Below are positions 1 through 39,009 of a DNA stretch of 64,000 bases, one piece after another. This DNA is from Thermodesulfobacteriota bacterium. Its GTDB lineage: Bacteria > Desulfobacterota_D > UBA1144 > Nemesobacterales > JAJCZQ01. The stretch is from assembly GCA_965215275.1 (NCBI GenBank), contig OZ244044.1, positions 1,120,001 to 1,184,000 of the forward strand. The letters run 5' to 3'. Numbering within the stretch: position 1 is the first letter of the stretch; each line of letters starts with the position of its first letter. The notes under the pieces were generated by a model. It did no database searches, was not told the origin of the DNA, and saw nothing but the letters and a program-made list of their open reading frames with translations. The position numbers and the translations under genes are program-made.

Positions 1-2569
1 AGCAGAAGATGGAGAAGAAGTGGGGACCTTACACTCATGGAGCATTAAGGTATACGGGAATTTTTATCAGGGACATGGCAGTGAGATCACTACTAAAGCT
101 ATAAGTCTGCCTTTTATTGCTAATAAGGAATACACACAAAATACTTCAGTAGAAGACACGTATCCTGAAGCAACGGGAGATAATCCGCCTTATACTTATA
201 GATTTGTTCGCGGTACATTACCAGATGGACTAAGCTTTGATCCTGACACCCGGGTGCTGAGCGGAACACCAACTACTGTAGGTAGGAAAACTGCTCAATA
301 TTTAGCAGAAGACGCAAGTGGAGATATAGCAAGGAGGACCTTCTTTATAACTATAACAGCAGGACCGCCAACCTTTTCAGGAGCAACGGTCCCTGAACAG
401 ATATGGACGGAAGGGGTAAGGATACCAACATTACGTTTTCCTAATGCAACGGGAGGTAACGGAACTTTAACATACTTTTTAAGTCCTGCGCAGCCAGTTG
501 GTATCAGCAGACAGGACAACAGGTTATTCGGAACACCTACGGAACCTCAAAGAAGATCTCTTTATACATGGACAGTCAGAGACAAAGATAATGATGAGGA
601 TATTATTGAGTTCTATATTACTGTAAGAGAGAACGTCCCTACCTTCGGAGGTCAGACCATACCTCAGCAGAATTATATAGTAGGCAGAACAATACAAAGA
701 TTAGTATTTCCTCGTGCAACGGGAGAGGAACCGTTAACTTACAATTTAGAAGGAGGTCCGACTAATTTACCAGGTGGATTGAACTTAGTAAGTAATCCAA
801 CAAGTATAATAGGAACACCAACTACAACGGCGGACATTAATTACAGATGGACAGTTACGGACAAAGATGGAGATAAGACAGAACTTCCGTTCAGGATGAA
901 GATAAGGTCTGCATCTGAAGTACCGGACTTCGGCAGTGAGACGGTAGAAGATCAGGTGTGGGGTAACGGCAGAGCAGTAACGTTAACTCTGCCTCAGGCA
1001 ACTGGAGGGAATGGAACTTTAAATTACAGTTTAAGCGGTGTTATACCAAATGGACTTACTTTTAACCAAAACACCAGAACGTTAAGTGGAACGCTCAACA
1101 TTGTTGATACAAGTATATTACCTGTAACTGGAACTTATACCTGGAAGGTAACTGACTCTGACTCAGATGATGACGGTGATTCTGACAGTATTACCTTCTC
1201 TATTACTATAGAAACTGATTCAGAGCCGAGCTTCGGAGGTCAGACCATCCCAAATCAGACATATATTGAAAGGACAACCTTCGGTCTTCCAGTAACGCTG
1301 CCTGAAGCAGTTACAAATACAGGGAATGGGACTTTAATTTACAGTTTAAACCGTAGTTTACCTAGTGGTTTGAGCTTTGATCCTGCTACCAGAGTGATAA
1401 GTGGAACTCCAACTCATAGGCAACCTATTTTTTCAACTTATACATATAGGGTAAGAGATAATGATGGAGATACGGCTAATCTGAGTTTCCGCCTGCAAAT
1501 AATCGGTAACACCCGGCCAAGCTTTCATAATACGATAACAGATAAGGTGTATTATACGTTTACAGCAGTAACGGAAACGTTACCTGAGGCAGCACAAAAT
1601 AATAATCCACCTTCAACTTACAGTTTAACTCCTGCATTACCTGATGGACTGATCTTTACCCCTGCTACCAGAGAGATAACAGGAACACCAACTGCTGCAA
1701 TGTCTGAGACTGATTACACGTATACGGTTGCTGATCTAAATGGAGATACGGACGAGTTAACATTCAGTATCACTGTATTGGCAGTAGCAGACACGGAACC
1801 GACCTTCGGCAGTGAAACTATAGATAACAAGGTATATATAAACTACGGAGAAGCAGTAACGGAAACACTGCCTGAAGCAACGTCAGGGAATGCACCATTA
1901 ACTTACAGTTTAAAGAGGGACCATTTTGGTAGTTTCACTACTGCTTTATTTAAGGGATTGACATTTACTGCAAACACCAGAGAGTTAAGCGGAACACCCA
2001 ATCTTGATATTCATCCAAGTCTATTTCCTGTAACTGCTACTCATACATATAAAGTAAGAGACAATGATGGAGATACAGCAGAGATAATGTTCAGTATAAC
2101 AATAGAAGAAGACAGCGAACCGGACTTCAGCGGTGTGACAATACCAGATCGTGTGTACACGGGGAGAACAATAGAGCTGCCAGAGGCAGCGGGAGGGAAT
2201 TTACCAGTTACTTACAGTATAACACCTGATCTGCCAGCTGGATTGAGATTTAACGAAGTAACGCGGGAAATAAGTGGGACACCCAGGAGTGCATCAACAA
2301 GAACTTACACGTATACGGTAACGGACAGCAATGGAGATACGGATGATGCGACTTTCATGCTCAGTGTAGAGGTTACTTCTACTCCAGGACCAACACCACC
2401 ACGAGGACCAAGAACGTCAGGTACTGATTCAGGCGGAGGTGGAGGAGGATGTGCTGTATCAGAGCAGAGCAGCGTTGATGAAGATATTCTCGGAGTAATG
2501 ACATGTCTGATACTTATACCTGTGTCAGTAACGATAAGAAGAAAGAGAAGAGCTCAGGTAAAGACTTAG
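1..2569 (+). CDS. 5'-truncated surface protein: end of a proprotein-convertase P domain, 8 He_PIG/cadherin-like Ig repeats, Pro/Thr linker, Gly6-Cys-TM-basic C-terminal sorting signal
   Basis: Frame is open from base 2 (AEDGEEVGTLHSWSIKVYG), matching AGTLHSWNIKVYG at the P-domain end of the 36.6-39 kb paralog. Repeats of PxF..T(I/V)..TLPEA.GN..LTYSL..LPxGLxF..SGTP..YTYxVxDxDGD; C-terminus GGGGGGCAVS...LILIPVSVTIRRKRR. Confidence 0.85.
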   Translation, partial: AEDGEEVGTLHSWSIKVYGNFYQGHGSEITTKAISLPFIANKEYTQNTSVEDTYPEATGDNPPYTYRFVRGTLPDGLSFDPDTRVLSGTPTTVGRKTAQYLAEDASGDIARRTFFITITAGPPTFSGATVPEQIWTEGVRIPTLRFPNATGGNGTLTYFLSPAQPVGISRQDNRLFGTPTEPQRRSLYTWTVRDKDNDEDIIEFYITVRENVPTFGGQTIPQQNYIVGRTIQRLVFPRATGEEPLTYNLEGGPTNLPGGLNLVSNPTSIIGTPTTTADINYRWTVTDKDGDKTELPFRMKIRSASEVPDFGSETVEDQVWGNGRAVTLTLPQATGGNGTLNYSLSGVIPNGLTFNQNTRTLSGTLNIVDTSILPVTGTYTWKVTDSDSDDDGDSDSITFSITIETDSEPSFGGQTIPNQTYIERTTFGLPVTLPEAVTNTGNGTLIYSLNRSLPSGLSFDPATRVISGTPTHRQPIFSTYTYRVRDNDGDTANLSFRLQIIGNTRPSFHNTITDKVYYTFTAVTETLPEAAQNNNPPSTYSLTPALPDGLIFTPATREITGTPTAAMSETDYTYTVADLNGDTDELTFSITVLAVADTEPTFGSETIDNKVYINYGEAVTETLPEATSGNAPLTYSLKRDHFGSFTTALFKGLTFTANTRELSGTPNLDIHPSLFPVTATHTYKVRDNDGDTAEIMFSITIEEDSEPDFSGVTIPDRVYTGRTIELPEAAGGNLPVTYSITPDLPAGLRFNEVTREISGTPRSASTRTYTYTVTDSNGDTDDATFMLSVEVTSTPGPTPPRGPRTSGTDSGGGGGGCAVSEQSSVDEDILGVMTCLILIPVSVTIRRKRRAQVKT

Positions 2570-2684
2570 CAATGCACTTCTTTCAAAGGTATTTCTGAGA
2601 GAATTGGAGTCTGGTTTTCTTTTATAAGTTCGTTGAGGAGAACGGGTGTATTACCGTGTATTGAGCTATAGTATGTAATTCCCT

Positions 2685-2707
2685 TTATATAACTGTCAGT
2701 TATATAA
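2685..2707. repeat. Perfect AT-rich palindrome TTATATAACTG-T-CAGTTATATAA between convergent genes
   Basis: 11-bp arms are exact reverse complements around a 1-nt centre. Confidence 0.7.
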
Positions 2708-2797
2708 GTTATTTAATTTTTCTTATGTCTGGTTATCAAGATAATTCCGAAGCTATCTATACAGATTTGCAGGACAGAAAAACTTATTACTTGGCTG

Positions 2798-3757
2798 CTA
2801 AACTGGTGAGATCTCAAGCATTCTGTTAATGGACCTTCTGGCTTTTGCAGCAATTTCGCTTGGAACGTCAACTTCGTAAATTTCTTCCCTGAGCGATATC
2901 AGGACCTTTTCAAGCGTTATCATCTTCATGTACTCACAGACGGCGGATTCATTTGCGGCAAAGAAAGTTTTTTCCGGATTCTCCTTCCTCATTCTATGCA
3001 GAATGCCAGTTTCCGTTGCAACAATAAACTCATTTGCATCAGAAGAACAGGCGTGCTTTACCATACCGCCGGTAGATAGGAATTTTATATCATCAGGTAG
3101 TTCCTTTCCTTCCTTCACGCTTTGATAAAGGTAAGTTGTAGTGCAGCCACATTCGGGATGAACTATCATATCCGCCTCGGGATGTTCTTTTTTCATGGTC
3201 TTAATGTCCTTAACCTTTATTCCGGCGTGCACGTGGCACTCGCCGGGCCAGATATGGATGTTATCCCTTCCAGTTACTTTTGCCACGTAAGCTCCAAGAA
3301 ACATATCGGGCAGAAACAGTATCTCCCGATCACTTGGAATTGCCTTTACCACCTGCACGGCATTTGACGAAGTTACACAGTAATCAGTCTCAGATTTAAC
3401 TTCCGCAGAAGTATTAACATAAGAAACCACTACCGCCTCCGGGTGTTCACTTTTCCATTCTTTGAGTTTTTTCATATCTATGGTCTCAGCAAGGGAGCAT
3501 CCTGCATCCAGATCGGGAATTAAAACTTTTTTATCAGGAGATATTATAGATGCCGTTTCAGCCATAAAATGAACTCCGCAGAAAACTATCATCTCAGAAT
3601 CAGTAACGGACGCCTTTTGTGACAGTCCAAGCGAATCCCCAACGTAATCTGCAACGTCCTGCACTTCGGGAAGTTGATAATTGTGTGCAAGAATAATGGC
3701 TTTTTTCTTAATTCTCAGCTCATTGATCTCTTCCACTATGCCGCTTATATCTTTCAT
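2798..3757 (-). CDS. nadA: Quinolinate synthase
   Basis: AHNYQ, FCGVHFMAETA, AGCSLA, YVNTSA, HPEC, CEYMK motifs. Confidence 0.97.
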   Translation of the reverse strand: MKDISGIVEEINELRIKKKAIILAHNYQLPEVQDVADYVGDSLGLSQKASVTDSEMIVFCGVHFMAETASIISPDKKVLIPDLDAGCSLAETIDMKKLKEWKSEHPEAVVVSYVNTSAEVKSETDYCVTSSNAVQVVKAIPSDREILFLPDMFLGAYVAKVTGRDNIHIWPGECHVHAGIKVKDIKTMKKEHPEADMIVHPECGCTTTYLYQSVKEGKELPDDIKFLSTGGMVKHACSSDANEFIVATETGILHRMRKENPEKTFFAANESAVCEYMKMITLEKVLISLREEIYEVDVPSEIAAKARRSINRMLEISPV

Positions 3758-3816
3758 TTTTGTTCAACCACCGCTTCTTGCAGAATAACAAGAAAAGTGG
3801 ATCATTGTAAGGATTA

Positions 3817-4680
3817 TTATATCATATCAAGGCTTATATCTAAAGCCTGAGCCGAATGAGTTAAAGCACCCACAGAAATAAGGTTCACCCCCAACTCCGC
3901 CACCTGCCTTACTCTTTCTAAAGTAATTCCACCGGAAGCTTCTATAAGCGCTTTTTCTCCTATAATGCAAACCGCTTCCTTCATTAAGTTATCCGGCATG
4001 TTATCGAGCATTATAATATCCGCTCCTGCCTCCAGGGATTGCTCCACCTGATCCAATCTTGAAGTTTCAACCTCTATCTTATGGTCAGAACATAAGTTTC
4101 GCTTGATCTTTTCAACTGCCTGCTTAATACCACCTGCAAGTTTAATGTGATTGTCTTTTATAAGTATCCCATCCGAAAGTCCTATCCTGTGATTATGTCC
4201 CCCTCCCACTCTTACCGCGTATTTGCTAAGTATTCGCATGCCTGGAACGGTTTTTCTCGTATCAATTATCTTAACGTTGTATCCTTCCACCGCTTTTACG
4301 TACTTGGATGTGGCAGTTGCTATACCACTAAGCCTCTGAAGTATATTAAGTGCCAGCCTTTCTCCTGTAAGAATGTATTTTTGTGAACCCCTTATTTTCA
4401 CTATCAAGTCACCAGCGTTCATCTTATCCCCGTCGCTTTTAGAACTTAAAAACTCGACAGAACTATCAAGTTTTCTGAATACTTCGCTTGCAACAGGAAG
4501 GCCTGCCAAGATTCCACCCTCCTTGCACCTGATCTCAGCGTTACACTCAATAGTTTTTGGAAAAAGCAACTCAGTGGTAATGTCACCTTTACCCACATCC
4601 TCTTCCAGTGCCAGATCTATGATCTTTTCAACCTTTGCCCAATCAAGACCGTAACTGCTCATAATAACAGTATTATACAA
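3817..4680 (-). CDS. nadC: Nicotinate-nucleotide pyrophosphorylase (start may be ATG 4662)
   Basis: DTRKT, NHRIGLSDGILIKDNHI, IMLDNM, EASGGI. Confidence 0.97.
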   Translation of the reverse strand: MYNTVIMSSYGLDWAKVEKIIDLALEEDVGKGDITTELLFPKTIECNAEIRCKEGGILAGLPVASEVFRKLDSSVEFLSSKSDGDKMNAGDLIVKIRGSQKYILTGERLALNILQRLSGIATATSKYVKAVEGYNVKIIDTRKTVPGMRILSKYAVRVGGGHNHRIGLSDGILIKDNHIKLAGGIKQAVEKIKRNLCSDHKIEVETSRLDQVEQSLEAGADIIMLDNMPDNLMKEAVCIIGEKALIEASGGITLERVRQVAELGVNLISVGALTHSAQALDISLDMI

Positions 4681-4774
4681 CCCTGACGCTTTTATTGTAA
4701 ATTAAATAACTATGCGAGGTTCCAGAAGACATAACTGTATATTCTCTTAAGAAGGCAAAAAAAGACGCGTCAGA

Positions 4775-6391
4775 CTAAAGGGATATCTTATAAGGAACGG
4801 AACCTTTTTTAACGGCAAAATGGAGATTTAGCTTTTTATCTTCCATTGGAAAATCAGCTCTGATATGAGAACCCCGGGATTCTTCCCTTATGTACGCCGA
4901 CCTTGCGATCAGCATACTCACGTTCACCATGCTGGAGATCTTGTATTTTATCCACCCGGACAGCTCTTCAACTTCCTTTGTAATATCCTCAAGTTCTTCC
5001 AGGTGTGAACTTATCCCGTTCCCGTCTCTCACGATCCCGAGTTTTTTATTGTTCTGGTCTAATATCCTGTCTCTCAACATACTGTATTTTTCCCCGTCAC
5101 CTTCCGATATGGAAAAAATGAGGGTAGGGATGTCCGGCCGAAAAGACCTGCTCACTTCAGTTTTATTTCTTACGAACATATCAACTGCTCTTTTTGCAAA
5201 TACCATACATTCCAAAAGAGAATTACTTGCAAGTCTGTTTGCTCCGTGAACTCCCGTACATGCAGCCTCTCCACAGGCAAAAAAACCGCTGAGACTGGTT
5301 TCTCCGTTAAGTCCGGTCCTGACCCCTCCGATCGTGTAATGTGCTGCGGGAGCAACCGGGATCAAGTCCTGCGTCAGATCAAAACCGTTCTGAAGGCACA
5401 GGCTGTATATATTGGTAAATCTTTTCTTTACAAATTCCGGGTCAAGATGTTCCAGGGTAAGGTAGACGCAGTCGTGTCCTGAACGCCTGATCTCGTTATA
5501 TATAACTTTTGAAACCACGTCCCTGGGTGCAAGTTCTCCAAGGTCATGATGATCCTTCATGAACCTTTTCCCATCTATATTCACAAGGTGTGCACCTTCA
5601 CCTCTGACCGCCTCGGTTATTAAAAACGTTTTTCCTTTTTTTGTGTAAAATGCCGTCGGGTGAAACTGAATAAATTCCATGTCCATAAGTTCTGCACCAG
5701 CTCTGTAGGCAAGATCAATTCCCTCGCCGGTCGATCCTTCAGAATTGGTGGTGGGTTTGAAAAGTGCCGAAGCTCCCCCGGCTGCCAGTATTGTGGAACT
5801 TGAGCGTATAAGTACGTATTTTAACCTCTTCTGATCGTACGCCCAGGCACCGAAACAGCTTTTTTCATCGGACACGAGGTCCGTGACCGTTGTAAGTTCA
5901 AGCAGTCTGATATTTGAATTATTAACCACGGACGAAATTAGAAAGTTTACCGTTCTTTCCCCGGTTGAATTACCTCCCGCGTGTAAGACCCTTCTTCTTG
6001 AATGACCTCCTTCCAGACCAAGAGCAAGACCTTCCTCGTCGTAGTCAAACTTCATACCAAGGTCGATCAGGTCCAGTACCCTTTCCGCTCCATCTTTAAC
6101 GAGTATGTTAACCGCTGCAATGTTACAAAGACCGCCGCCGGCGTTTACAGTGTCCATTTTATGAAAAGCAGTTGAGTCTTCAGAATCGATCGCAGCTGCT
6201 ATTCCTCCCTGTGCCCAGTAAGAGTTGCTTTCGATAAGGGTTGACTTTGTAACGACCACCACGCTTCCGAAGCTTGAAGCGTAGCTGGCAGCGTAAAGTC
6301 CGGCTATGCCGCTGCCGATGATCAGAAAATCGGTGTTTAATTCTAAAAAGTCCAAATTTTCCAGTTTATCCGCCATAAATGTCCGATACAA
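4775..6391 (-). CDS. nadB: L-aspartate oxidase (start may be ATG 6376)
   Basis: GSGIAG FAD motif, SYWAQGGIAA, EGGHSRRRVLH, QFHPT, GVHGANRLASNSLLE; next to nadC/nadA. Confidence 0.96.
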   Translation of the reverse strand: MYRTFMADKLENLDFLELNTDFLIIGSGIAGLYAASYASSFGSVVVVTKSTLIESNSYWAQGGIAAAIDSEDSTAFHKMDTVNAGGGLCNIAAVNILVKDGAERVLDLIDLGMKFDYDEEGLALGLEGGHSRRRVLHAGGNSTGERTVNFLISSVVNNSNIRLLELTTVTDLVSDEKSCFGAWAYDQKRLKYVLIRSSSTILAAGGASALFKPTTNSEGSTGEGIDLAYRAGAELMDMEFIQFHPTAFYTKKGKTFLITEAVRGEGAHLVNIDGKRFMKDHHDLGELAPRDVVSKVIYNEIRRSGHDCVYLTLEHLDPEFVKKRFTNIYSLCLQNGFDLTQDLIPVAPAAHYTIGGVRTGLNGETSLSGFFACGEAACTGVHGANRLASNSLLECMVFAKRAVDMFVRNKTEVSRSFRPDIPTLIFSISEGDGEKYSMLRDRILDQNNKKLGIVRDGNGISSHLEELEDITKEVEELSGWIKYKISSMVNVSMLIARSAYIREESRGSHIRADFPMEDKKLNLHFAVKKGSVPYKISL

Positions 6392-6394
6392 ACA

Positions 6395-9028
6395 TCATCC
6401 CGCCAGAACTTCCATGAGCATATTCTTTATTCTCTCAAGCTTCCTGGCATCAAAGACTTTTTTGTTCCTGCCGTCAGATACATAAAATACATCAACGGCC
6501 TGATCGACCTTTGTTGAGATCTTTGCATAGTTTATATTAAGTCCGAGCTTGGTCAGCGTTTTTGTAATGTCATAAAGCAGACCCGTGCGGTCATGAGCAT
6601 AGATATCGATTACGGTGGAATGATCTGATGAATCGTTATCAAACTCAATCCTGGCAGGATATTCAGGGATGCTTTTCTGATACAGGGACTGACTGGACAT
6701 TCGTTTTCTGACCAGGTCTTCCACGCTGATCCTGTTCTCCAGTACGTCTTTGATGTTTGAATCTATTTTATTCCACATCGTCTCGTTCCGGTCTGAGGTC
6801 AGTCTGCTCAGATAATCAATGTAAAACACGTCCAGCACTCTGCCGTCTTTGGTAGTGGACAGTCTTGCACCCAGTATGTTTATGTCGCTTGCGCTTAACA
6901 CCCCGCATATCTTATATATAAGGCCTTTTTGATCACTTCCCCAGAAGACAAACTCGTCATGATCGTCCTTGGGATGAGGGATCAGATCGGTAACGGTCTT
7001 TGAACCGGCCCTGGTCGCGATCTGAATATGATGAGCGATGGACTTGGGAACATGAACGTATAAGTATGAGAAAGGAAGCCTTTCAAGAAATTTTCTGACG
7101 TCTTCCTTTTCCATTTTACCTTTCAGGAACTTCATCGTCCTGTTCATCGTGTACCTGATACGTTTCTCGATTGATTCGGTCGTATAGTCCCCTACTTCAA
7201 AATATTTTGAAGTCCTCAGGTACAGTTCTCTCAGCAGCATGCCTTTCCAGTTGGTCCAGACGTCAGGACCGACGGACCTTATATCGGCAAACGTCAGCAG
7301 ATAAAGCAGGTTCAGTGTTTCCATACTCCTTAACATGTGCGTTAATCTCTCTATAAGGCTTATATCGTGCAGGTCCCTTCTTTGTGAAAAGTGGGACATA
7401 ACAAGATGGTTCTTAACCAGGAACTCAAGCTGCTCTGCATCCTGCTTCTGCAAGCCCATTCTTTTGGCGATCTTTGATGCCATTACAGCTCCTGTCTCAG
7501 CATGATTTCTACCCGAACCCTTACCGGCATCATGGATCAGGCACGCAAGGTACAGAACATCCCGCTTTACCACGGATTCGGCGATCTTGGTCAAAAGAGG
7601 GAACTCCTCTTCATACTTATAGCTTATGAGGTCTTCTACTTCACGAACCATCATTATAGAATGCACGTCGGTCGTATAAACGTGATAGGCGTCATGCTGT
7701 ACCATACACACTATCTTGCCGAATTCCGGCATGTAGTGCCCGAGAACTCTGAGTTCGTTCATTAAAAACAGGGTCTTTGCAACGTTGTTCCCGGTTCTCA
7801 AGATCCTGAGAAAAGCACTGTTAAAACGGCCGTTCCTTCTGGTCTTATCGTCTATACGAGCTGAATTTTCCCATATAAGCCACGTAAGATGTGTGCTCAT
7901 TTCAACTTTATACTTATCCGCGTATTCGAACGCACGGATAAAATTAACTGGGTCTTCTCTGAATATATCTTTATCTTTCACCGACAGCTGGCCTCTTCTG
8001 ATCACAAAACCATTATCTACGTGTCTGCTTCTTCTGAAAAAATGCCACCTGTTGGTAGCCAGACATTCATCGACTATTTTTTTAGAGTGCATGTGGCTTA
8101 ATCTGGCCCTTAAATAATAAACCCGCATGAACTTCTCAACTGCCTTGATCTTGGAATCCTTGTAATTAAAGAACTTTGAAACTTTCTCCTGAAGTTCAAA
8201 GCTGAGCCTGTCATCCCTTCTGCCGGACTGATAGTGCATCTCGGACCTTACTGCAAGAAGGAAGTTATAGCACCTTTCAATTATCTGATACTCCTTTGAA
8301 CTGATAACGCTTTTATTTAAAAGAGACAGCAGGTCCCGGCTCTTGTACTTTGCCTTGGCGATCCAAAGAGCTGACTGTATATCCCTTAATCCCCCCTCTC
8401 CTTCTTTGACGTTAGGCTCCAGCAGATATAAGGAACCGCCGAACTTTTTAACCCGATTTACAGTTTCATTGAACTTGCGCTTTATGAACTTTCCGGAAAT
8501 TTTCGGCAGGACCTGACCGTATATCGTTGTATCAAGTTTGTCAGAGAGGAGCTTATCACCGTAAATGTGATGACAGTCCATCAGAGAGGTCAGGATGGTG
8601 GTATCTTCATCGTAGGACAGGTCTCTGCATTCCTCTATGGTCCTTACCGAGTGCCCGACGTCAAGATTTAAGTCCCATAAGAAATACACCAGTGATTCAA
8701 CCATATTTTTAACAAGGGACCTGTTTTTCTTGGTATGAAGAAAGAGCAGGTCTATATCAGAATAAGGACAGAGTTCTCTGCGGCCGTACCCTCCAATGGC
8801 CACAACGGAAACCCCTTTGAGATCTTCAAAGCCAAACCCCTCTAAAACACGTATGATAAGCTGGTCATAGACCTTTGATCTTTCCTTGCAGAGTTCGATC
8901 CCAAAGCTGGACTTGTATTTCCTGTTCCTTTTATGCTTTGCATGCAGGCTGGACTTTGCCTGGTCAAAGTAAGTTTTTATATCTGCTGTAAAGTCTTCTT
9001 TTTCTTTTACGGACAGTGGGTTCTTTAT
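6395..9028 (-). CDS. glnD: [Protein-PII] uridylyltransferase; N-terminus extends about 75 codons beyond the ORF-track GTG (8803), probable ATA start at 9028
   Basis: GGYGRRELCPYSDIDL, LEPNVKEGEGGLRDI, YHVYTTDVH, LIHDAGKG HD domain, two C-terminal ACT domains; upstream frame open to the TGA at 9035-9037. Confidence 0.93.
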   Translation of the reverse strand: MKNPLSVKEKEDFTADIKTYFDQAKSSLHAKHKRNRKYKSSFGIELCKERSKVYDQLIIRVLEGFGFEDLKGVSVVAIGGYGRRELCPYSDIDLLFLHTKKNRSLVKNMVESLVYFLWDLNLDVGHSVRTIEECRDLSYDEDTTILTSLMDCHHIYGDKLLSDKLDTTIYGQVLPKISGKFIKRKFNETVNRVKKFGGSLYLLEPNVKEGEGGLRDIQSALWIAKAKYKSRDLLSLLNKSVISSKEYQIIERCYNFLLAVRSEMHYQSGRRDDRLSFELQEKVSKFFNYKDSKIKAVEKFMRVYYLRARLSHMHSKKIVDECLATNRWHFFRRSRHVDNGFVIRRGQLSVKDKDIFREDPVNFIRAFEYADKYKVEMSTHLTWLIWENSARIDDKTRRNGRFNSAFLRILRTGNNVAKTLFLMNELRVLGHYMPEFGKIVCMVQHDAYHVYTTDVHSIMMVREVEDLISYKYEEEFPLLTKIAESVVKRDVLYLACLIHDAGKGSGRNHAETGAVMASKIAKRMGLQKQDAEQLEFLVKNHLVMSHFSQRRDLHDISLIERLTHMLRSMETLNLLYLLTFADIRSVGPDVWTNWKGMLLRELYLRTSKYFEVGDYTTESIEKRIRYTMNRTMKFLKGKMEKEDVRKFLERLPFSYLYVHVPKSIAHHIQIATRAGSKTVTDLIPHPKDDHDEFVFWGSDQKGLIYKICGVLSASDINILGARLSTTKDGRVLDVFYIDYLSRLTSDRNETMWNKIDSNIKDVLENRISVEDLVRKRMSSQSLYQKSIPEYPARIEFDNDSSDHSTVIDIYAHDRTGLLYDITKTLTKLGLNINYAKISTKVDQAVDVFYVSDGRNKKVFDARKLERIKNMLMEVLAG

Positions 9029-9034
9029 CTTATC

Positions 9035-10239: not shown

Positions 10240-10467
10240 CTGTAAGATCAGAACAAGCTTTTTATTAAACCATGAGTTTTATATAAGATATAAAATTTCT
10301 GAGCAGTTCCTGCAGTTGTTACACTGCCACAAACCGCTGTGATACAAGGTTCATATCTTTTATCATTCCAGGCAAAACTTCCGAACAAAATAAGATTACT
10401 GATATTGAAGATAAAATTAAAGTATGTAGATTAGTAATCCAGTTTATATCTTGGTTAATAACATTAT

Positions 10468-10950: not shown

Positions 10951-10965
10951 AATGAACTTACTACC

Positions 10966-12003
<1,038 letters not shown>

Positions 12004-12041
12004 TCCTGAACAGACGATATTATACTTCTTTGCTCCCACCA

Positions 12042-12395: not shown

Positions 12396-12466
12396 CTTTT
12401 ACTCCTCAAACCATTTTAAAACTAAGCATCAATTATACACCAATAATTTCTGAATTTATACACAAG

Positions 12467-27264: not shown

Positions 27265-27454
27265 AAGAGCAACCTCACAACGTGAACGTTAATTATAACA
27301 TACTAAACGCCTTTTAAAAAAATGAGCATATTTATAACCCGTTTTCCAACGACCGGACTGCCTAAATACCGTACAGTTAGTCTTTGCAGGGAATTATTGC
27401 TGTCTTTTCATTTAGTGTTTTGCAAATTAGTGTTATAATACAGCAATTAATCTT

Positions 27455-27898: not shown

Positions 27899-27937
27899 AA
27901 AACAACCGTCCGCAAGTCATTATCAAGATACATCTCA

Positions 27938-30129: not shown

Positions 30130-30177
30130 CAAAATCAAGATAGAATTATACGACCTAAACGTCTAACGGAGGTATAC

Positions 30178-31164
30178 ATGTCGTCACTAATTACAGGAGC
30201 TACCGGGTTCATTGGTTCTCATGTTGCACGAAAACTGATGGAAAGAGGAGAGAGGGTAAAGGTACTTCTAAGAAAAACGAGCAGAACAGATAACATTGAC
30301 AACCTGAACGTTGACAAGGTTTATGGCGATATACTTGACAAAAGATCGATTATAAACGCCTTACAAGGTTGCAATACCTTGTATCACGCGGCAGGATTTG
30401 TCTCCTTCAAAAAAAAGGATTACGGCAAGATGGAGGAAATAAACGTTCAGGGTTCAAAGACGGTACTTTCTGCCGCCGTTGAAGCGGGGGTCAAAAGGGT
30501 CGTCTTCACAAGCAGCGTTGCCGCACTTGGACCCGGACCGGAAAACGGCTGCGTGACCGAGGACACAGTAACGGATTTCAGTTCCGCGGGTATAGGGTAC
30601 ATGAACGTAAAGAGAGACGCTGAAAACGCAGCTTTGGATTTCTGCTCACAGGGACTTGACGTCGTTATTACAAATCCTTCGGTCGTTCTTGGAGCAGGGG
30701 ACATTTATATGTCCAGCGCCGGGTCTGTCCTGTGGTATTGTAAAAGACGGTTTCCCGGATATCTGGACGGAACGCTGAACGTCACAGACGTTGAAGACGT
30801 GGCAGAGGGACATATACTTGCAGCTGAAAAAGGAAGGTCCGGCGAAAGGTATATACTGGGTAATACCAATCTTATAGTAAAGGAATACTTCAATCTGCTT
30901 GAAAAGGTAACCGGTATCCCTTCCCCGAAACTGAAAATACCTTACGCTGCTGCTTACGCGACCGCTTATCTGACCGAGCGGATTTTAGGATTTGATTTTC
31001 CCAACATGTCAACCATGGACGTGGACTCTGTCAAGCTGACCAGATACAACTGGCACGCGGACAGTTCAAAGGCCGAACGCGAACTCGGATATACTAAAAC
31101 GCCCATAGAAAAAACAGTAAAAAAAACCGTAGACTGGTTTAAAGCAAACGGTTACCTGAGCTAG
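30178..31164 (+). CDS. NAD-dependent epimerase/dehydratase (HpnA/dihydroflavonol reductase-like SDR)
   Basis: TGATGFIG, YHAAG, FTSS, YMNVK, GERYILG. Confidence 0.85.
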   Translation: MSSLITGATGFIGSHVARKLMERGERVKVLLRKTSRTDNIDNLNVDKVYGDILDKRSIINALQGCNTLYHAAGFVSFKKKDYGKMEEINVQGSKTVLSAAVEAGVKRVVFTSSVAALGPGPENGCVTEDTVTDFSSAGIGYMNVKRDAENAALDFCSQGLDVVITNPSVVLGAGDIYMSSAGSVLWYCKRRFPGYLDGTLNVTDVEDVAEGHILAAEKGRSGERYILGNTNLIVKEYFNLLEKVTGIPSPKLKIPYAAAYATAYLTERILGFDFPNMSTMDVDSVKLTRYNWHADSSKAERELGYTKTPIEKTVKKTVDWFKANGYLS

Positions 31165-31285
31165 GTCGACATCATGATCATAAGTTCAACTGACCGTAAG
31201 GGGCTGAAAATTTGGCGATAATGTAAAACTGACGATTTACAGAAAGAAGCAGACCTATAAATTACAGAGGAGTTATATTTATCTA

Positions 31286-32356
31286 ATGCCCGGCAACACA
31301 TTCGGAAGACTGTTCAGAATAACAACCTGGGGAGAGTCTCATGGAAAAGCCGTGGGGGTGGTACTTGATGGATGCCCCGCCGGACTCGGTATATCGGAAG
31401 AAGAGATACAAGCAGAACTTGACAGAAGAAGACCAGGTCAGAGCAGTATAACCACTCAGAGAAAAGAACCGGACAAAGTCGAAATACTGTCCGGCGTTTT
31501 TGACGGCAAGACAACCGGGACCCCGATTTCCATGATAGTCAAGAACGTGGACGCTATATCCAGGTCCTATGAAGATATAAAAGACACATACAGACCGGGA
31601 CACGCTGATTTTACCTACGATCAGAAATACGGACTCAGGGATCACAGGGGAGGTGGCAGGTCCTCAAATCGCGAGACAGTAGGAAGGGTCGCCGCGGCAG
31701 CAATAGCAAAAAAAATACTGAACATAGAGGGTATAAGGACAATTGGTCACGTAAAGCAGGTAGGAGATATAAAAGCTGAAAAATTCGACACCAGACAGAT
31801 CGAGAAAAATCCCGTCAGATGTGCGGACAAAAAAAAGGCACTTGAAATGACGGCGTTGATCGAGCAAGTCAGAAAAGAAGGTGATTCCATAGGGGGAATA
31901 GTTGAGATAATATCCACTGGTATGCCAAAGGGACTTGGCAGCCCCGTTTTTAATAAACTGGATGCCGACCTTGCAGCAGCATTAATGAGCCTTGGAGGTA
32001 TCAGAGGTTTTGAAGCAGGTATGGGATTTACCGTAGCAGAAAAAAGAGGCTCCGAGGCAAATGACCTGATGTATAAAAAGAAAGACGGTAAGCTGGGCTT
32101 TAAGACAAATAACGCCGGTGGCATGCTCGGTGGTATATCAAATGGCGAGGACCTCGTTGTCAGAATAGCGGTCAAGCCAACATCCTCAATATCAAAAGAA
32201 CAAAGAACAGTGGATAAAAAAGGTCGTGCCAGAAAGCTGACAGTAAAGGGCAGACATGATCCCTGCCTTTGCCCGAGGGCAGTACCAATTGCAGAAGCTA
32301 TGGTTAACCTGGTCCTGATCGACCATCTGCTTGCATCCAGAATTACAAGGGTTTAG
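31286..32356 (+). CDS. aroC: Chorismate synthase
   Basis: GESHG, RRRPGQS, YRPGHAD, GGGRSS, GRHDPC. Confidence 0.98.
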   Translation: MPGNTFGRLFRITTWGESHGKAVGVVLDGCPAGLGISEEEIQAELDRRRPGQSSITTQRKEPDKVEILSGVFDGKTTGTPISMIVKNVDAISRSYEDIKDTYRPGHADFTYDQKYGLRDHRGGGRSSNRETVGRVAAAAIAKKILNIEGIRTIGHVKQVGDIKAEKFDTRQIEKNPVRCADKKKALEMTALIEQVRKEGDSIGGIVEIISTGMPKGLGSPVFNKLDADLAAALMSLGGIRGFEAGMGFTVAEKRGSEANDLMYKKKDGKLGFKTNNAGGMLGGISNGEDLVVRIAVKPTSSISKEQRTVDKKGRARKLTVKGRHDPCLCPRAVPIAEAMVNLVLIDHLLASRITRV

Positions 32357-32370
32357 CCTTTACAGCTACA

Positions 32371-32715
32371 GTGGATATTAATTTTAAGATCTTTGTGGAC
32401 AATGAAATCATCTACTATGGAAATTTCAGTGAGCTTCCACAAGAACACAGAGAAAAAATCGTTGAGGCGCTGGATGAATGGGGTGAACTGCTTGGAAAAA
32501 GCGGCCTGAACGAGACAATATTTTCATTACTTGCATTGTGCGATCAAAGACAATACGAGTGCCCTAAGTGTGGAAAAACCGGCAACGAAGATACCACCTG
32601 TCCTGACTGTGGAGACAAGACGGCTCAAAAAGACACATATCCGCATAACGAAAAAATATTGACGCTGCTCAACTGTATTGGAATGATAACTCACCTGGAG
32701 ATTGAACGACCGTAA
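32371..32715 (+). CDS. Hypothetical protein with CxxC...CxxC zinc ribbon
   Basis: CPKC...CPDC; 14 bp after aroC. Confidence 0.65.
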   Translation: MDINFKIFVDNEIIYYGNFSELPQEHREKIVEALDEWGELLGKSGLNETIFSLLALCDQRQYECPKCGKTGNEDTTCPDCGDKTAQKDTYPHNEKILTLLNCIGMITHLEIERP

Positions 32716-33002
32716 TGAAAATTACCGTGGAAGGACAGATATTTCCGAAAGTATGGGACATTGCAAGCAACGTAAAGAAGATCGGAAATCGCCGTAAAGG
32801 CTGGAATCTCGGCAGTGGAACAATGAGTTATCCGGTTTATGAAGTTACTCTTCCGGAAGACACTAAAAAAGAGGGGATATACTTCATCACTCCTCAGGGC
32901 GTAAAACTCTACTTCAGCCAAGGCAGCCAATATGAGATCGGTTATCTGATCTCAGACCTGGACAGCGGTTCACTTGCCTGTAAATATTTTCAGGAGAATT
33001 AA
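32715..33002 (+). CDS. Hypothetical protein, 95 aa
   Basis: TAATG stop/start coupling with the upstream ORF. Confidence 0.6.
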   Translation: MKITVEGQIFPKVWDIASNVKKIGNRRKGWNLGSGTMSYPVYEVTLPEDTKKEGIYFITPQGVKLYFSQGSQYEIGYLISDLDSGSLACKYFQEN

Positions 33003-33018
33003 TATACTCGGATTTTGC

Positions 33019-34161
33019 TTATAACGAGTCGTTTAAAATCTCAGTTGCTTTTGTAACACCCGCCCCAAAGTTAAAACTGTGACCTAGATTTTTAAGAGTG
33101 GATTCCAGCGCAGATATAACTGCTATCGTATCGGTTGCTTCTATATCTCCAATGTGAGAAAATCTGAATATCTTACCCTTTGCATGATCCTGTCCACCCG
33201 CGATCGTCATACCGAACCTGTCTTTTAGTTCCTTGATTATCTTCGCCGCGCCGATCCGCTCTGGTGCAATTCCCACCGTTAACGCAGTGCTTGGAGAACC
33301 TTTGGCAAATAACCCTATGTTCATGGCGGTCAAGGCTCCCCTGGATGCTCTGGACAGACTGTCATGTCTTTTGTACATATTTGCAAGGCCTTCACTTGAA
33401 AATCTTTTCAGAACCTCCGCAAGACCTATAATAAGGGTGACCGCCGGGGTGTATGGAGTGGTATTCTTAGCAGCACTCGTTCGGTAATTTTTCAGGTCGA
33501 AGTAGAACCTGGGAAGGTCGGAAGTCTCGCTGAATTTCCATGCTTTTTCACTAAGAGCGATGAACGCCAGTCCCGGAGGCATCATAAATGCCTTTTGTGA
33601 ACCTCCCACCAGAACGTCAATACCAACTTCATCAAAACCTAAAGAAAATACGCCAACGGCAGTTATTCCATCCACGATCAATAATACATCTTCCCTTTCA
33701 TTGGTTATTTCAGCTATTTTCTCCGTCGGGTGTCTAACACCAGTTGACGTTTCGCTTGCCTGTAACAGAACTGCCTTTATGGATGGATCATTATCAAGTG
33801 CCTCTTTAATTAAGGAAGGATCAACGGCAGTACCCCATTCCACTACGATCTCCTGTACTTTAAGCCCGTATGATCTTGATATCTTTGCCCACCTTTCTCC
33901 AAATTTGCCGCCGTTCACCACCAACACCTTATCGCCACTGGACATGGTGTTGGAAATAGCAGCGTCCATTGCTCCCGTGCCTGATGAAGCCAGTATTAAA
34001 ACCTCCTGCTCCGTCTGATACACATGTTTCAGCCCCTTTCTTACCTCTTCAAAAATAGCTTCAAACTCTTCCGTTCTATGATGAATAATGGGGTTTGCCA
34101 TCTTGATCAGAATCTCGCTGGGCACTGGAACGGGACCGGGGGTAAATACGTATTTTTTCAC
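33019..34161 (-). CDS. Class V PLP aminotransferase (serine/alanine-glyoxylate type)
   Basis: TPGPVP, SSGTGAM, ETSTGV, GSQKAFMMPPG, AGGQ. Confidence 0.93.
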   Translation of the reverse strand: MKKYVFTPGPVPVPSEILIKMANPIIHHRTEEFEAIFEEVRKGLKHVYQTEQEVLILASSGTGAMDAAISNTMSSGDKVLVVNGGKFGERWAKISRSYGLKVQEIVVEWGTAVDPSLIKEALDNDPSIKAVLLQASETSTGVRHPTEKIAEITNEREDVLLIVDGITAVGVFSLGFDEVGIDVLVGGSQKAFMMPPGLAFIALSEKAWKFSETSDLPRFYFDLKNYRTSAAKNTTPYTPAVTLIIGLAEVLKRFSSEGLANMYKRHDSLSRASRGALTAMNIGLFAKGSPSTALTVGIAPERIGAAKIIKELKDRFGMTIAGGQDHAKGKIFRFSHIGDIEATDTIAVISALESTLKNLGHSFNFGAGVTKATEILNDSL

Positions 34162-34325
34162 TTCTTAATTCTCCTTAAATTATGAATATTGGATGAACCG
34201 GAAAGAGGCAATTTACCTGAAAGCAAATTAAAATCAAAATTGACATAGACAGAACAATGAGTTAAACAACATAGAACTTGAAAGAACACTTTATATCAGC
34301 AACGACTTTTTATAAGGTATATACA

Positions 34326-35436
34326 ATGAGCGAAGATAACAGACTGGATGTAAACCAGCTTCAGAGCAGAATCAAATCTATCTGGGACTCTCTTTGACAT
34401 CGCAGATAAAAATTCACGGTTGAACGAGATAGAATCTCTGATAAACGCCCACGATTTCTGGAACGATAAGACCGAAGCACAGTCAATTTTAAAAGAGCAA
34501 GCACGTATCAGGAACTCACTAAATACGTGGGAATTGCTGCGTTCTGAGCTTGAAGACCTGGAAGTTCTGATAGAACTTTGTGATGAATCCAACGACGAAG
34601 AACTGCAGAGTGAAATTGATATAAAGCACGGTAATCTGGTCTCCAAGATCGAGGAACTTGAGTTTAAAAAGGTCCTCAGTGCCACCGACGACGAAAGAAA
34701 TGCAATAATGTCAATAAATTCCGGTGCCGGAGGCACGGAAGCACAGGACTGGGCGGACATGTTGTTCAGAATGTACTTAAGATATGCTGAAAGCAAAGAC
34801 TATAAGACGAACATATTAGATCTGCAGGACGGAGATGAAGCAGGAATTAAAAATGTAACCTTTTTAATAGAGGGAAGTTATGCATTTGGCTATTTAAAAG
34901 GTGAAAGCGGTGTCCACAGACTTGTAAGAATTTCGCCATTTGACTCTAATAAGCGTCGACACACCTCTTTTGCCTCGGTTTTCGTATCTCCCGAAGTGGA
35001 CGATCTGATTGAAGTGGAAATTGAGGATAAAGATTTAAGGGTCGACACTTTCAGGGCAAGTGGTAAAGGTGGTCAGCATGTTAACAAAACAGACTCCGCC
35101 ATAAGGATCACACATATGCCAACAGGTATGGTTGTCAGCTGTCAGAACGAAAGATCCCAACATCAAAACAGGATTAACGCTATGAAGATACTGAAGGCAA
35201 GGATCTATGAAATGGAAAGAGAGAAGAAACAAAAGTTAATTGAGGAGATGAACTCAAGTAAGATGGAGATAGGCTGGGGCAGTCAGATACGTTCTTATGT
35301 AATGCATCCATACAGAATGGTCAAAGACCACAGAACGAACTTTGAAGAAAGCAACATAGATGCGGTAATGGATGGAGATATTGACAATCTGATCAAAAAA
35401 TATCTACTGTATCAAGCTGACAATAGAGTAAACTAA
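34326..35436 (+). CDS. prfB: Peptide chain release factor 2 with programmed +1 frameshift at 34392-34398
   Basis: ATG 34326 gives 23 codons ending CTT-TGA-C; the +1 frame continues into the ORF with SPF and GGQ motifs. Confidence 0.97.
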
Positions 35437-35454
35437 ACAATCCGGAGGCAATCA

Positions 35455-36327
35455 TTGAAAATTGGCATCATAGGTAAAAGAGATACAAAAGAAGTTTATT
35501 CCGTTGTAAGTGATCTCATTAAATGGTTTGAAAAAAAGGAAATTGAGTTCTGGGTGGATGAAGAACTTGCACAGAACATCAAGGTTAAAAGATTTTTCAA
35601 GCAGAATGACCTGCCTAAAGAGATTGAACTCGTTGTCGTCTTCGGTGGAGATGGTACTTTCCTCAGTGCCTCTCAACAGGTAAACAAAAACAATATCCCG
35701 ATACTCGGATTCAATCTGGGAGGGCTTGGTTTTCTTACCGAATTTACCGTAAATGAGATCTTTCCTATAATGGAGAAGGTCATTGAAGGTGATTATGAGA
35801 TTGAGGAACGGGAGATGGTGTTGGCGTCTGTGGTCAAATCGGGAAGAAAGCCAGAGGAGTATCATATCCTGAACGAATTAGTTATTAACAATGGCGCAGT
35901 TTCAAGAATTATTGATCTTGCAATATTCATAGATGGTAATAAGATCACGACTTTCAAGGCAGATGGAGTTATTTTTGCTACTCCTACCGGTTCAACCGCT
36001 TATTCTCTATCCGCTGGAGGTCCTATCGCATATCCGACCTTACCTGTAATCTTAATTACACCAATTTGCCCACATATTCTGACAAACAGACCTTTGGTGG
36101 TATCAAACAATATGGAGATCAAGGTTAAAGTACTAACTGAAGATCAGAATGCATACGTAACGCTAGACGGACAGAAAACATTAACACTAGGTATGAACGA
36201 TGAAGTGATACTAAAAAAATCCAGATCCAAAGTCAAGTTAATTAAGTCGCCCTTTAGAGACTATTTCTCTATACTTAAAACAAAGCTTATGTGGGGTGAG
36301 AGATATGGAACAATCAATGAAAAATAG
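35455..36327 (+). CDS. nadK: NAD kinase
   Basis: GGDGT, LGFL, NE, DG..TPTGSTAYSLSAGGP; GGAGG RBS before TTG. Confidence 0.96.
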   Translation: MKIGIIGKRDTKEVYSVVSDLIKWFEKKEIEFWVDEELAQNIKVKRFFKQNDLPKEIELVVVFGGDGTFLSASQQVNKNNIPILGFNLGGLGFLTEFTVNEIFPIMEKVIEGDYEIEEREMVLASVVKSGRKPEEYHILNELVINNGAVSRIIDLAIFIDGNKITTFKADGVIFATPTGSTAYSLSAGGPIAYPTLPVILITPICPHILTNRPLVVSNNMEIKVKVLTEDQNAYVTLDGQKTLTLGMNDEVILKKSRSKVKLIKSPFRDYFSILKTKLMWGERYGTINEK

Positions 36328-36471
36328 ACTTTTCCACCGTTGTAGTGCCAAGACAAGGAATCGTGGTAGTTTGATTTATGGAGATTATCTGCTTAATTAC
36401 CAAAAAACTTACATCGCTTCCCTGCACTGACTTTAAAGGTTTGAACAGATTGTTTAGCATAAAAATTATTC

Positions 36472-36501
36472 TTGACATTCATTAATAATACAAAGTAAAA
36501 T
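36472..36501 (+). promoter_or_regulatory. Sigma70-like promoter of the subtilase-like gene
   Basis: TTGACA (36472-36477), 18 bp, TAAAAT (36496-36501), 10 bp before ATG 36512. Confidence 0.55.
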
Positions 36502-36511
36502 AGAAAAAGTC

Positions 36512-39009
36512 ATGAACATCCTGTTTAGAGTAACACCCCCCCCCATAAGTTATTAATTCCCTTTTTCTTTCTTCTGTGCTTTGTAAACGTTGGTGCATAT
36601 GGTCAGACCAGCGTTGATAACTGCGACTCCAGTGCAACGACAGAAGCTACATTGACAGTAGCCGGAAGTACACGTAGTGGAAGTTTAGCTGCCGGTGCTG
36701 ATCCGCATTACTTTCAGATAGACGTGAATGAAAGATTGATCGTGGCTATAATAGTAACCTTCCCCTTCTCCAATGATCAGGGATACAGTTTACAGGTATG
36801 TGACAGCAATAATTATCTGATAGCAAGTGCTGCTGGAGTTCGTATTGAGGATGAGGGTATAGTGAAGGTCACTATAGAAACCCGCCTCAGACCTGGAACG
36901 TACTATATAGTAGTGGGAAGCCGTGTTGCCACGTCCTACAATGTTGCAGTTGTGGTATCTGATCTTAATACTGTATTTGATGATGACTGCCCGGAAAGTA
37001 GTACTACAAATTATCCAAACGACACCTTATACGGTTGTCAGTGGTATCTGAAACGTCAGGCGGGTGAGTTTATATTAGGTGAAAAGACAATACCCGATAC
37101 GGAATATGCAGACATAAACATAGAAGAGGTCTGGGATGATAACGTATTTGGAGCTGAGATTAACGTAGCGGTGGTAGATCATGGCATGGACACAGATCAT
37201 GAGGACCTTGCTGATAACGTGGATACTACACTTTCTCATGATTACTCAGGAAGCGGTGATCTGTACAGTCCTTTCAGTGGTCGCGGCACACGTGTGGCAG
37301 GCATTATAGCAGCAGTGGGTGATAACAGCCTTGGAGTAAGAGGTGTAGCACCTCAGGCAAGCATCTACAGTTATAATTTAGCTGATAACTTCAGTGATAC
37401 TAATGCAAAGGACGCCATGGTCCGTAATAAGGATATAACGGCTGTATCTGTCAACAACTGGGGACCGAAGGACCTGCCGGTTCTTACAGAGGCTTCATCA
37501 GAGTGGGAAGAAGGAGTGGAAACTGGTATAAGAGAAGGATTTGGTGGTAAAGGAGTATTTTACGTATGGGCGGCAGGGGACGGACATGAAGGATCAGACC
37601 AGGCTAATTTTAATGAGTATTCCAACTACTACGCTGTAACTACCGTATGTTCATCAGAGATCGATAGTCATGATAGCTTGATCACTAAGGGTTCGAGTAC
37701 TTTTTCAGAAGAAGGGTTCAATCTATGGGTATGTGCACCGGGTTCTTATATTGTAACTACGGACAATAACGACATTTATACTTTTGAGTTCCCTGGAACG
37801 TCAAATTCAGCTGCTGTTGTTTCAGGAGTAGCGGCACTGATACGGGAGGTAAACAGTGATCTTAGCTGGCGGGATCTGAAACTGATCCTGGCAGATTCAG
37901 CCAGCCAGGGAGACACCCAGTTAATTCCTGTTAGTGATAATTGGAAACCAGGAGCATTTAAATACAGTTCTGATTCAGAACGTTATCGTTACAGTCCGAA
38001 GTTCGGTTTTGGCACGGTAGACGCTGCTGCGGCAGTAGAACTTGCAGGAAGCTGGACCAACGTTCCACCGCCAATGAGACCCGTGACGGTTTCCTCGGGT
38101 AATATCAATACAGTTATCCCGGACTTCACAACGGGAAACTCAGAAGAAGATGTTTCCGTCGTTTTCACACTGACAGTACCTGATATAGATATACCAGACA
38201 CTGAGGGCTTTACGGAATTTATAGAGATCGGTATTAATTTCACTCACCCTTTCTTTCCTTTTTTAAGTATAGAAATAACTTCCCCTGACGGTAGAGTGTC
38301 AAAACTCACTGAGGCATATCCAGCAGAAGCTTTATCACTTTTATTATCTGGCAGATCTCTTACTGTAGACGACTTTGACTATACAGGCAGAGAGCATCGT
38401 TTTGGTTTAGCTAATCACTTGGGAACGGACCCTGCCGGAGAGTGGACCTTGAAGATAACCAACGCTTCAGTCGCAGGTGCGGGGACCTTACACTCATGGA
38501 ACATTAAGGTCTATGGTCATATGTCTGGTGAGACACCTACGTTCGGCGGCTGGACGATACCAGATAAGAATTACGTGCCGGGAACCGCAGTAAAGGAAAC
38601 ACTGCCTGAGGCAACAGCAGGGAATGGAGAACTGACCTACAGCCTTTCCCCTCTTTCTTTACCTGCTGGACTTACTTTCAGTGAAACTGACCGAGTGATT
38701 AGCGGAACACCAACTGCTGTATCTTCCGGCAGTTATACATATACGGTAACGGATGAAGATGGAGATAAGGATGAGCTGAGATTTACTATCAGGGTAACAA
38801 CTACGCCGCCAGAACCAACAGACCCACCAACAACAAGACCACCGACACGAAGACCGACATCATCAGGTACAGGCGGAGGTGGAGGAGGATGTGCGGTCTC
38901 CGATCAGAGCAAAACTGTTCCTGATCTGCTCGCAGCAGTAGCATCTCTGATGCTTATACCTGTATCCGTAGTTATCAGAAGGAAGATAAGGTCTCGGATA
39001 AAGACTTAG
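36512..39009 (+). CDS. Secreted S8 subtilase/kexin-like protein: PPC-like N-domain, S8 domain, P domain, one Ig repeat, Gly6-Cys CTERM; frameshifted in a C9 tract (36536-36544)
   Basis: VAVVDHG, GTRVAGIIAA, GVAPQA, WAAGDG, GTS, WRDLK, FGFGTVDAAAAV, P domain ending WNIKVYG; signal peptide HKLLIPFFFLLCFVNVGAYG lies in frame upstream of the ORF-track start 36652. Confidence 0.85.
36536..36544 (+). repeat. Homopolymeric C9 tract at codons 9-11 of the subtilase-like gene
   Basis: taaca-ccccccccc-ataag. Confidence 0.9.

Follow-up and report, generated by a model that had tools for sequence, protein, structure and literature searches.

The stretch of DNA analysed here (the window; 64,000 nucleotides, G000:1120001-1184000) comes from a Candidatus Dadabacteria genome, called G000 or the source genome below, that is assembled as a single contig of 1.99 Mb and is 99.87% complete. 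The window carries two genes whose products end in a 45-residue tail resembling a C-terminal (CTERM) sorting signal, together with a cluster of type II secretion system (T2SS) genes. An earlier note had proposed the two tails as a lineage-specific, Cys-containing CTERM variant. Both are found on the forward strand where that note had placed them, at 2432-2569 and 38872-39009 with the stop codon included and the invariant Cys codons at 2450-2452 and 38890-38892, and a recount again gives 28 identical residues out of 45. The succession of GGGGGGCAVS(E/D)QS, a spacer, a hydrophobic stretch, LIPVSV, IRRK.R and a KT preceding the stop is as it had been described, and the best 17-residue mean Kyte-Doolittle values of the two tails are 2.48 and 2.65. 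On the evidence presented below, it is very probable that the tail is a Cys-CTERM sorting signal served by a single CPBP protease, with likely display by the T2SS, and that the source genome uses it for what is likely a phase-variable coat of pseudo-proteases.

The first tail closes window gene 1 (2..2569, forward strand), which represents only the 3' portion of a gene of the kexin-like family and comprises the end of a P domain, eight Ig-like He_PIG repeats and the tail. Upstream of the window lie its promoter, signal peptide and inactive S8 domain as well as two poly-C runs; the triad positions of that domain read S,S,F, and a TGA in frame, some 40 bases ahead of the window, breaks the gene. 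The second tail ends the open frame of window gene 2 (36529..39009, forward strand), which encodes the h-region of a signal peptide, a PPC-like N-terminal domain, a kexin/furin-like S8 domain (37153..37917), a P domain, one He_PIG repeat and a Pro/Thr/Arg linker. A match to a sigma-70-type promoter, putative in function (TTGACA, 18 bases, TAAAAT; 36472..36501, forward strand), is followed on the same strand by an ATG at 36512 and a run of nine C residues at 36536-36544. The open reading frame (ORF) had been called from a TTG at 36652; the real start is the ATG at 36512, which is out of frame at the C9 run, and the assembled frame from this ATG ends after 14 codons. As assembled, window gene 2 is thus likely to represent the OFF state of a phase-variable switch. 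Its S8 domain retains the catalytic Asp and Ser but has Arg in place of the catalytic His and Asp in place of the oxyanion Asn, and is predicted to be a pseudo-protease.

A hidden Markov model (HMM) built from the two window tails, as the earlier note had suggested, recovered 60 full copies from the source genome (E <= 4e-15) and one truncated relic. The next match has an E value of 0.35, which places the tail far beyond chance. All 60 copies are C-terminal, at most 19 residues from the stop codon, and the frames that bear them span 8.7% of the genome. Counted from the Cys, every copy has the Cys itself, G at -1, S at +3, Q at +5, L at +19 and +21 and S at +25; an Asp at +11 is found in 55 of the 60 and a Pro at +23, inside the helix, in 59, and the basic cluster (RRK) starts at +29. 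The spacer between motif and helix is about 11 residues long. The run of six glycines, which had been taken as a constant feature, proved variable in the alignment of tails called A2, where the Cys is the only invariant column. The tail therefore has the properties listed in the criteria of Haft: C-terminal position, multiple copies, an invariant motif, a helix, a basic cluster, a co-occurring intramembrane protease, and a signal-peptide h-region with a cleavage-like motif at 59 loci (by a heuristic and by eye, without SignalP). Clients that share nothing except the tail occur across the class and are absent within the source genome.

No sortase gene had been visible within the window, and the cognate enzyme does lie outside it. 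The search for a co-occurring rhomboid or CPBP protease found the latter: the source genome has exactly one PF02517 gene, at 680806-681450, encoding 214 residues (65.9 bits against a cut-off of 22.4). A rhomboid (PF01694) was not matched in the source genome, with controls positive in 14 of 14, and no exosortase was found there either, its control being positive in only 1 of 14 genomes; both were set aside as sorting enzymes. The five best NCBIfam models for the protease are all of myxosortase type, although the protein falls below every cut-off (MrtP 69.3 of 250 bits, Mrt_core 65.4 of 100, MrtS 58.7 of 130, MrtC 58.3 of 195, MrtX 44.8 of 180, and also MrtJ 33.5 of 75). The motifs EExxxR, FxxxH and HxxxN occur unchanged in all 19 orthologues compared, as in CPBP (Rce1-like) glutamic proteases. 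Its nearest relatives come from Candidatus Dadabacteria and Thermodesulfobacteriota metagenome-assembled genomes, and in a quick tree of 117 columns the orthologues group, with moderate support, with those of Nitrospirota, Aquificota and Planctomycetota, apart from most Myxococcota.

Comparison with described CTERM families supports the claim of a lineage-specific variant, since none of the 60 copies passes the cut-off of any curated NCBIfam CTERM model. The window tails score 12.4 of 27 bits for JDVT-CTERM and 12 of 22.5 for Synerg-CTERM and do not match MYXO-CTERM (TIGR03901); over the A2 alignment, 3 of 27 members match TIGR03901 (cut-off 20 bits), and the best score, 17.7, belongs to the tail of a relative. 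Full membership in a known family, which the earlier note had named as the outcome that would end any novelty, was not found. One of the closest likenesses is to MYXO-CTERM of Myxococcota (MrtX, MrtC and MrtP, NF040593, NF040594 and NF040674; core model NF040914), with which the tail shares a Gly-rich motif ending in an invariant Cys, a helix and an Arg cluster, and the system as a whole shares many clients per genome, one housekeeping CPBP protease with EExxxR and FFP motifs, and a T2SS. Unlike MYXO-CTERM, the Dadabacteria tail is below the cut-off and has the spacer of about 11 residues, the Asp at +11 and the Pro in the helix, and its small protease is also below the cut-offs. The MYXO-CTERM helix is described, in the available text of the Haft preprint (10.1101/2023.06.07.544157), as free of charged or Pro residues, and the tail as often having GCGC; here Pro is nearly constant and GCGC is absent. 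JDVT-CTERM (NF033191) with MrtJ (NF033192) resembles the present system in its single Cys after a Gly run, its CPBP protease, and the adjacency of protease and client in Nitrospirota and Planctomycetota loci. It differs in the sub-threshold scores of tail and protease given above, in having one client per genome against 1-60 here, and in its DP motif nine residues after the Cys, a position that is V, A or D in the present tail. Synerg-CTERM (TIGR04564) with MrtS (NF040589) shares a Ser/Gly cluster ending in one Cys, a conserved helix Pro and a T2SS, but again both scores fall short, and Synerg-CTERM has no spacer between motif and helix. GlyGly-CTERM with rhombosortase is similar in its Gly run, helix, basic tail, T2SS export and protease client (VesB), and differs in the enzyme, no rhomboid being found here, and in the invariant Cys of the present tail.

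The distribution of tail and protease was followed across the lineage. In a first sample of 31 genomes the tail was present in 21 and the protease in 22, with one mismatch. Among 120 genomes of the class, which as relatives are not independent of each other, 83 have both, 29 neither, 6 the tail alone and 2 the protease alone, so that the two agree in 112. The eight mismatched genomes are 59-92% complete (tail-only 59-92%, protease-only 83% and 92%). A particularly clean absence is seen in G002, a member of the same family that is 99% complete (1.99 Mb read) and in which neither a tail nor a CPBP protease was found: the glycine-zipper gene that precedes the protease in the source genome here runs straight into nadE, the gene found downstream of the protease at 11 of 12 loci listed from relatives, two of which have other genes in between. 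The tail represents an uncatalogued variant of the MYXO/JDVT-CTERM type of sorting signal.

A different explanation would be that the tail is a family-specific inner-membrane anchor, unprocessed and spread by gene-family expansion, and that the CPBP protease has another role. This fits the finding that all 60 clients in the source genome form one paralogous kexin-like family with S8 domains 53-100% identical, and also the failure of every curated CTERM model. The earlier note had held that confinement of the tail to one protein family would speak against a sorting signal, and within the source genome the tail is so confined; the comparison was therefore moved to the relatives, where the confinement breaks down. 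A scan of 21 clients from relatives, covering their last 244-558 residues, gave Pfam matches for 10, and the carriers include PPDK_N, LRR, collagen/DUF7151, DUF4394, fn3 and S8 proteins as well as proteins with no Pfam match. Since these clients are unrelated, the tail is read as a sorting signal. Its presence on such proteins in 89 of 120 genomes, the Cys as sole invariant column, the 112 of 120 agreement with the protease and the syntenic absence in G002 together make an unprocessed anchor very improbable.

Several points nevertheless weigh against the sorting pathway as proposed. Alignments A2 and A3 were built partly from genomes that were later counted, and independent losses are few, about three events (G002, family f6 and family f9), two of which concern reduced genomes (0.8-1.6 Mb). 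Within the source genome the clients are not independent of one another; the two that lack S8 share only N-terminal or Ig domains with the family. The protease gene lies directly upstream of a tail gene, an adjacency that may be chance because 60 copies of the tail are dispersed over the genome.

Beyond the class, a similar GGGGC-tail gene was found within 3 kb of a related protease at 14 of 79 loci, seven in Nitrospirota and seven in Planctomycetota; eight of these tails were scanned and all are below CTERM cut-offs. A myxosortase-like gene next to a gene with a GGGGC-S tail occurs at the Nitrospirota and Planctomycetota loci L113, L116, L117, L119, L120, L122 and L123, and L130, L134, L138, L146, L149, L159 and L164. 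The three Nitrospirota clients scanned at such loci are all S8 proteases. A separate expansion is seen in G012, from another family of the class, with 23 tail-bearing genes that mostly encode about 650-710 residues.

The T2SS cluster that had been noticed in the window is real: gspC-D-E-F-G-H-I-J-K occupies 46301..55444 on the forward strand, with H, I and J assigned by position to three N-methyl pseudopilin genes. Its nearness to the tails, which the earlier note had pointed out, carries no weight. An average 64-kb window of the source genome contains 1.98 tails and 56% of such windows contain at least two, so that proximity to the T2SS is at chance level and was rejected as evidence. The small ORFs on either side of the cluster (window 45684-45935 and 55463-56002) have no Pfam or NCBIfam match.

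On comparative grounds the T2SS is still the likely export route of the clients. GspE is found in 86 of the 120 genomes and in 82 of the 89 with a tail, and in families f6 and f9 the tail, the protease and GspE are all missing (0 of 6 and 0 of 19). An alternative is that the CPBP protease cuts the tail and the product is released, or kept in the periplasm or inner membrane, with the T2SS not involved. Seven tail-bearing genomes have no GspE match, GspE is kept without tail or protease in G001, G002, G006 and G014 (the T2SS of G002 being intact), and Pfam searches of the source genome gave no match to GspL. Added to the chance-level proximity, these observations count against the T2SS. Set against them are the 82 of 89 figure, the requirement of MYXO-CTERM and GlyGly-CTERM clients for a T2SS according to the available text of the Haft preprint (10.1101/2023.06.07.544157), and the likeness of the clients, with up to 15 Ig repeats, to stalked surface proteins. 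We regard a route other than the T2SS as quite unlikely. Two ORFs of 496 and 203 residues at G000:1255000-1257102, 80 kb from gspC-K, are GspL/GspM-shaped and are candidates by this shape heuristic alone. PilM has no match over the cut-off in the source genome, whereas 29 of 30 relatives have one; a type IV pilus assembly gene thus seems to have been lost and the T2SS kept.

The likely model for the pathway draws on Myxococcus. MrtX was shown to cut MYXO-CTERM in a Cys-dependent manner and was proposed to act after lipidation, as given in the available text of PMC11980579. By analogy with the MrtX work, the clients would be exported via Sec, the tail Cys would be lipidated, the CPBP protease would then cleave the tail at a site like that of MrtX, and the T2SS would display the lipid-anchored product on the cell surface. 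In the source genome the substrates would come from about 59 loci of one kexin-like family, mostly catalytically inactive and gated by poly-C after the start codon.

The members of this family share a layout of signal peptide, optional PPC-like domain, kexin-like S8 domain, P domain, 0-15 Ig repeats, Pro/Thr linker and tail. Of the 60 tail-bearing frames, 52 have an S8 domain and two are without it; another five represent the 3' halves left by breaks in S8 genes, and the last is a fragment of 84 residues. Homology of the S8 domain to kexin is clear (E 1.8e-34), and S8 plus P domain resemble PDB entries 2id4, 1p8j and 3hjr. The family thus shares the S8 and P-domain homology of kexin/furin and the Aeromonas serine protease, and differs from them in its added Ig repeats and sorting tail and in the state of its active site: the Asp-His-Ser triad is intact in just 7 of 57 S8 domains, window gene 2 reading D,R,S. 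Many members are single insertions between genes that are adjacent in G002 (e.g. G000 180920, 268496, 319720, 627284, 717760 and 753823), which indicates that each was dispersed singly. Gene conversion is suggested by three sets of S8 domains that are identical although their loci lie far apart. The idea that the family is mobile cargo with terminal repeats was dropped, since the flanks, compared by eye and without a formal repeat search, show a shared promoter and short 3' similarity and no clear inverted ends.

Poly-C runs of 8-13 residues lie near the start in 52 of the 59 family loci, and 28 of these have two serial runs with an ATG before each; a sigma-70-type promoter match accompanies 50 of the 59. 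Read from the ATG that precedes the final run, 11 of the 52 keep the frame; 26 have one C too many, 13 lack one C, and 2 could not be assigned. Contingency loci of Campylobacter, Helicobacter and Neisseria are homopolymers of at least eight G or C residues in the 5' coding region of surface-protein and methyltransferase genes, found in mixed frames. The present tracts have the same properties, in that a homopolymer in the 5' coding region sets the frame and the loci are in mixed states. They differ in that 52 loci belong to one family, many with tandem runs, in a genome whose mismatch-repair genes are intact. The tracts are likely to be phase-variable switches.

Could the runs instead be assembly errors, or fixed pseudogene decay with no switching at all? 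Six family loci have internal breaks, and none of the six unique tracts spanned by public contigs has a length variant, in a comparison where contig sets X1 and X2 may stem from the source sample and contigs drop rare variants; this absence also weighs against phase variation itself. Yet the X1 and X2 contigs match three unique tracts at two OFF loci without gaps and X5 contigs match one, confirming out-of-frame lengths and ruling out homopolymer assembly error at these three tracts; three unique tracts at ON loci are likewise equal in length in public contigs. Among the OFF loci, tracts are too long in some cases and too short in others, the long frames downstream of the tracts remain open in 53 of 59 loci, and MutS and MutL are intact, a finding that also disposes of mismatch-repair loss as a cause of the tracts. 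Furthermore, the source genome has no C/G run of length 7 and 139 of at least 8, with runs of 9-13 common, against 27 of length 7 and 7 of at least 8 in G002, and the tracts outside the family lie, as judged by eye, largely in methyltransferase, TPR and lipoprotein-like genes. Error or decay is accordingly an unlikely explanation for the runs. Variants longer by C and CC at two further tracts were not used, because their flanks are common to 11-22 paralogues.

The eight loci without a gating run, among them all seven with an intact triad, form one clade in a quick tree from which one truncated row was omitted (SH-aLRT 99); this reflects one event and is no statistical correlation between gating and inactivity. 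With the catalytic residues mostly lost and the genes gated by poly-C, the family is therefore most likely a phase-variable coat of surface pseudo-proteases.

The lipidation step raises the question of which enzyme would act on the tail Cys, stated to be unknown in the available text of PMC11980579. The source genome has two Lgt genes, 46% identical: lgt1 lies upstream of lnt, and lgt2 (G000:1811865-1812617; L168:3866-4618) after recJ, in a recJ-lgt2-trkA order that is syntenic across the class. A quick tree with 30 rows separates the two into distinct clades (SH-aLRT 99); lgt1 is the copy retained by each of the seven single-Lgt genomes that it includes. At least two Lgt matches occur in 81 of the 83 genomes with tail and protease, and a single match in 26 of the 29 with neither, the three exceptions being 74-90% complete. 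In G002 and G009, recJ runs straight into trkA and lgt2 is gone. A dedicated role of lgt2 in the tail pathway, as the candidate Cys-lipidating enzyme, may be put forward tentatively on this pattern. A three-enzyme C-terminal lipoprotein pathway can be imagined with similar reserve, in which lgt2 would lipidate the Cys, the protease would cut behind it and the T2SS would display the product, anchoring some 50 inactive kexin-like antigens under the control of single or tandem poly-C runs, alongside the eight ungated genes with all seven intact triads.

It is fairly probable, however, that the housekeeping lgt1 suffices, or that no lipidation takes place, and that lgt2 acts on other lipoproteins and disappeared in parallel as genomes were reduced. 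The Lgt-count pattern, the clean loss of lgt2 between recJ and trkA and the constant retention of lgt1 in single-Lgt genomes are all awkward for this account, but it is favoured by G029 (closed, one contig, 97% complete), which has the protease and one tail and no lgt2 at the syntenic site. G022 (230 contigs), with tail and protease and one Lgt, also counts against a role of lgt2. Among 101 Nitrospirota genomes, three have the protease, two of them with a single Lgt, and 28 others have at least two Lgt matches without the protease. MrtX cuts its substrate in E. coli without a myxobacterial partner, according to the available text of PMC11980579. Up to 18% of single-copy genes of the source genome (190 of 1044) have no orthologue in G002, so that one extra loss, that of lgt2, is not rare. 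A rule that the protease requires a second Lgt was thus given up as unsupported in Nitrospirota, yet four of five spot-checked genomes of other phyla had at least two Lgt genes. No lgt was found beside the protease gene in 100 loci. Residues mapped by eye show a two-residue deletion before the H103-equivalent in 16 of 16 Lgt2 rows, with mostly F or L at that position; H103 of Lgt can be Y, W or F, according to the part of PMC13251419 available.

If the proposed pathway is correct, myxosortase-type sorting, proven only in Myxococcus xanthus, would extend to another lineage with an uncatalogued tail and protease, a pair overlooked by annotation in roughly three quarters of the sampled genomes of the class. 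A dedicated lgt2, should it prove true, would be the missing lipid transferase of Cys-CTERM sorting. Moreover, a 2-Mb genome of an uncultured lineage would be devoting about 9% of its sequence to a single family that is anchored, largely inactive and for the most part switched off, a variable-coat design like that of pathogens. No paper linking Dadabacteria to CTERM or to phase variation turned up in our literature search, and none of the papers listed there describes the tail in its title or the start of its abstract. The main text of the Haft preprint (10.1101/2023.06.07.544157) contains none of the strings 'Dadabact', 'Nitrospir' and 'Planctomyc'; its supplements could bear on this point.

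A few further observations concern homopolymers elsewhere in the source genome. Homopolymers also occur within family genes at G000:518332 and 668426: a G13 run immediately ahead of the catalytic Asp region splits one gene, and a C17 run is in frame inside a P domain. A TPR-repeat family has internal C9-11 runs, some in frame and some splitting genes (G000:19247-21557, 30557-31864, 1068163-1069299, 1899939-1916909 and 1964685-1965745). Genes that by eye appear to encode DNA methyltransferases have 5' or internal C/G runs (G000:828763, 834720, 842999, 843980, 1001504, 1048690, 1049819, 1306215 and 1814694) and may form a multi-locus phasevarion. Three paralogous lipoprotein-like genes with an SCDDDD motif have G9-10 right before the ATG (G000:94069, 1295437 and 1301357), where its length could tune ribosome binding. 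Finally, two or more families of multi-copy ORFs, 400-500 residues long and TnpB-like as judged by eye, lie at G000:82078, 198124, 772211, 1041658, 1094989, 1270982, 1441523, 1616497-1619577 and 1695277.

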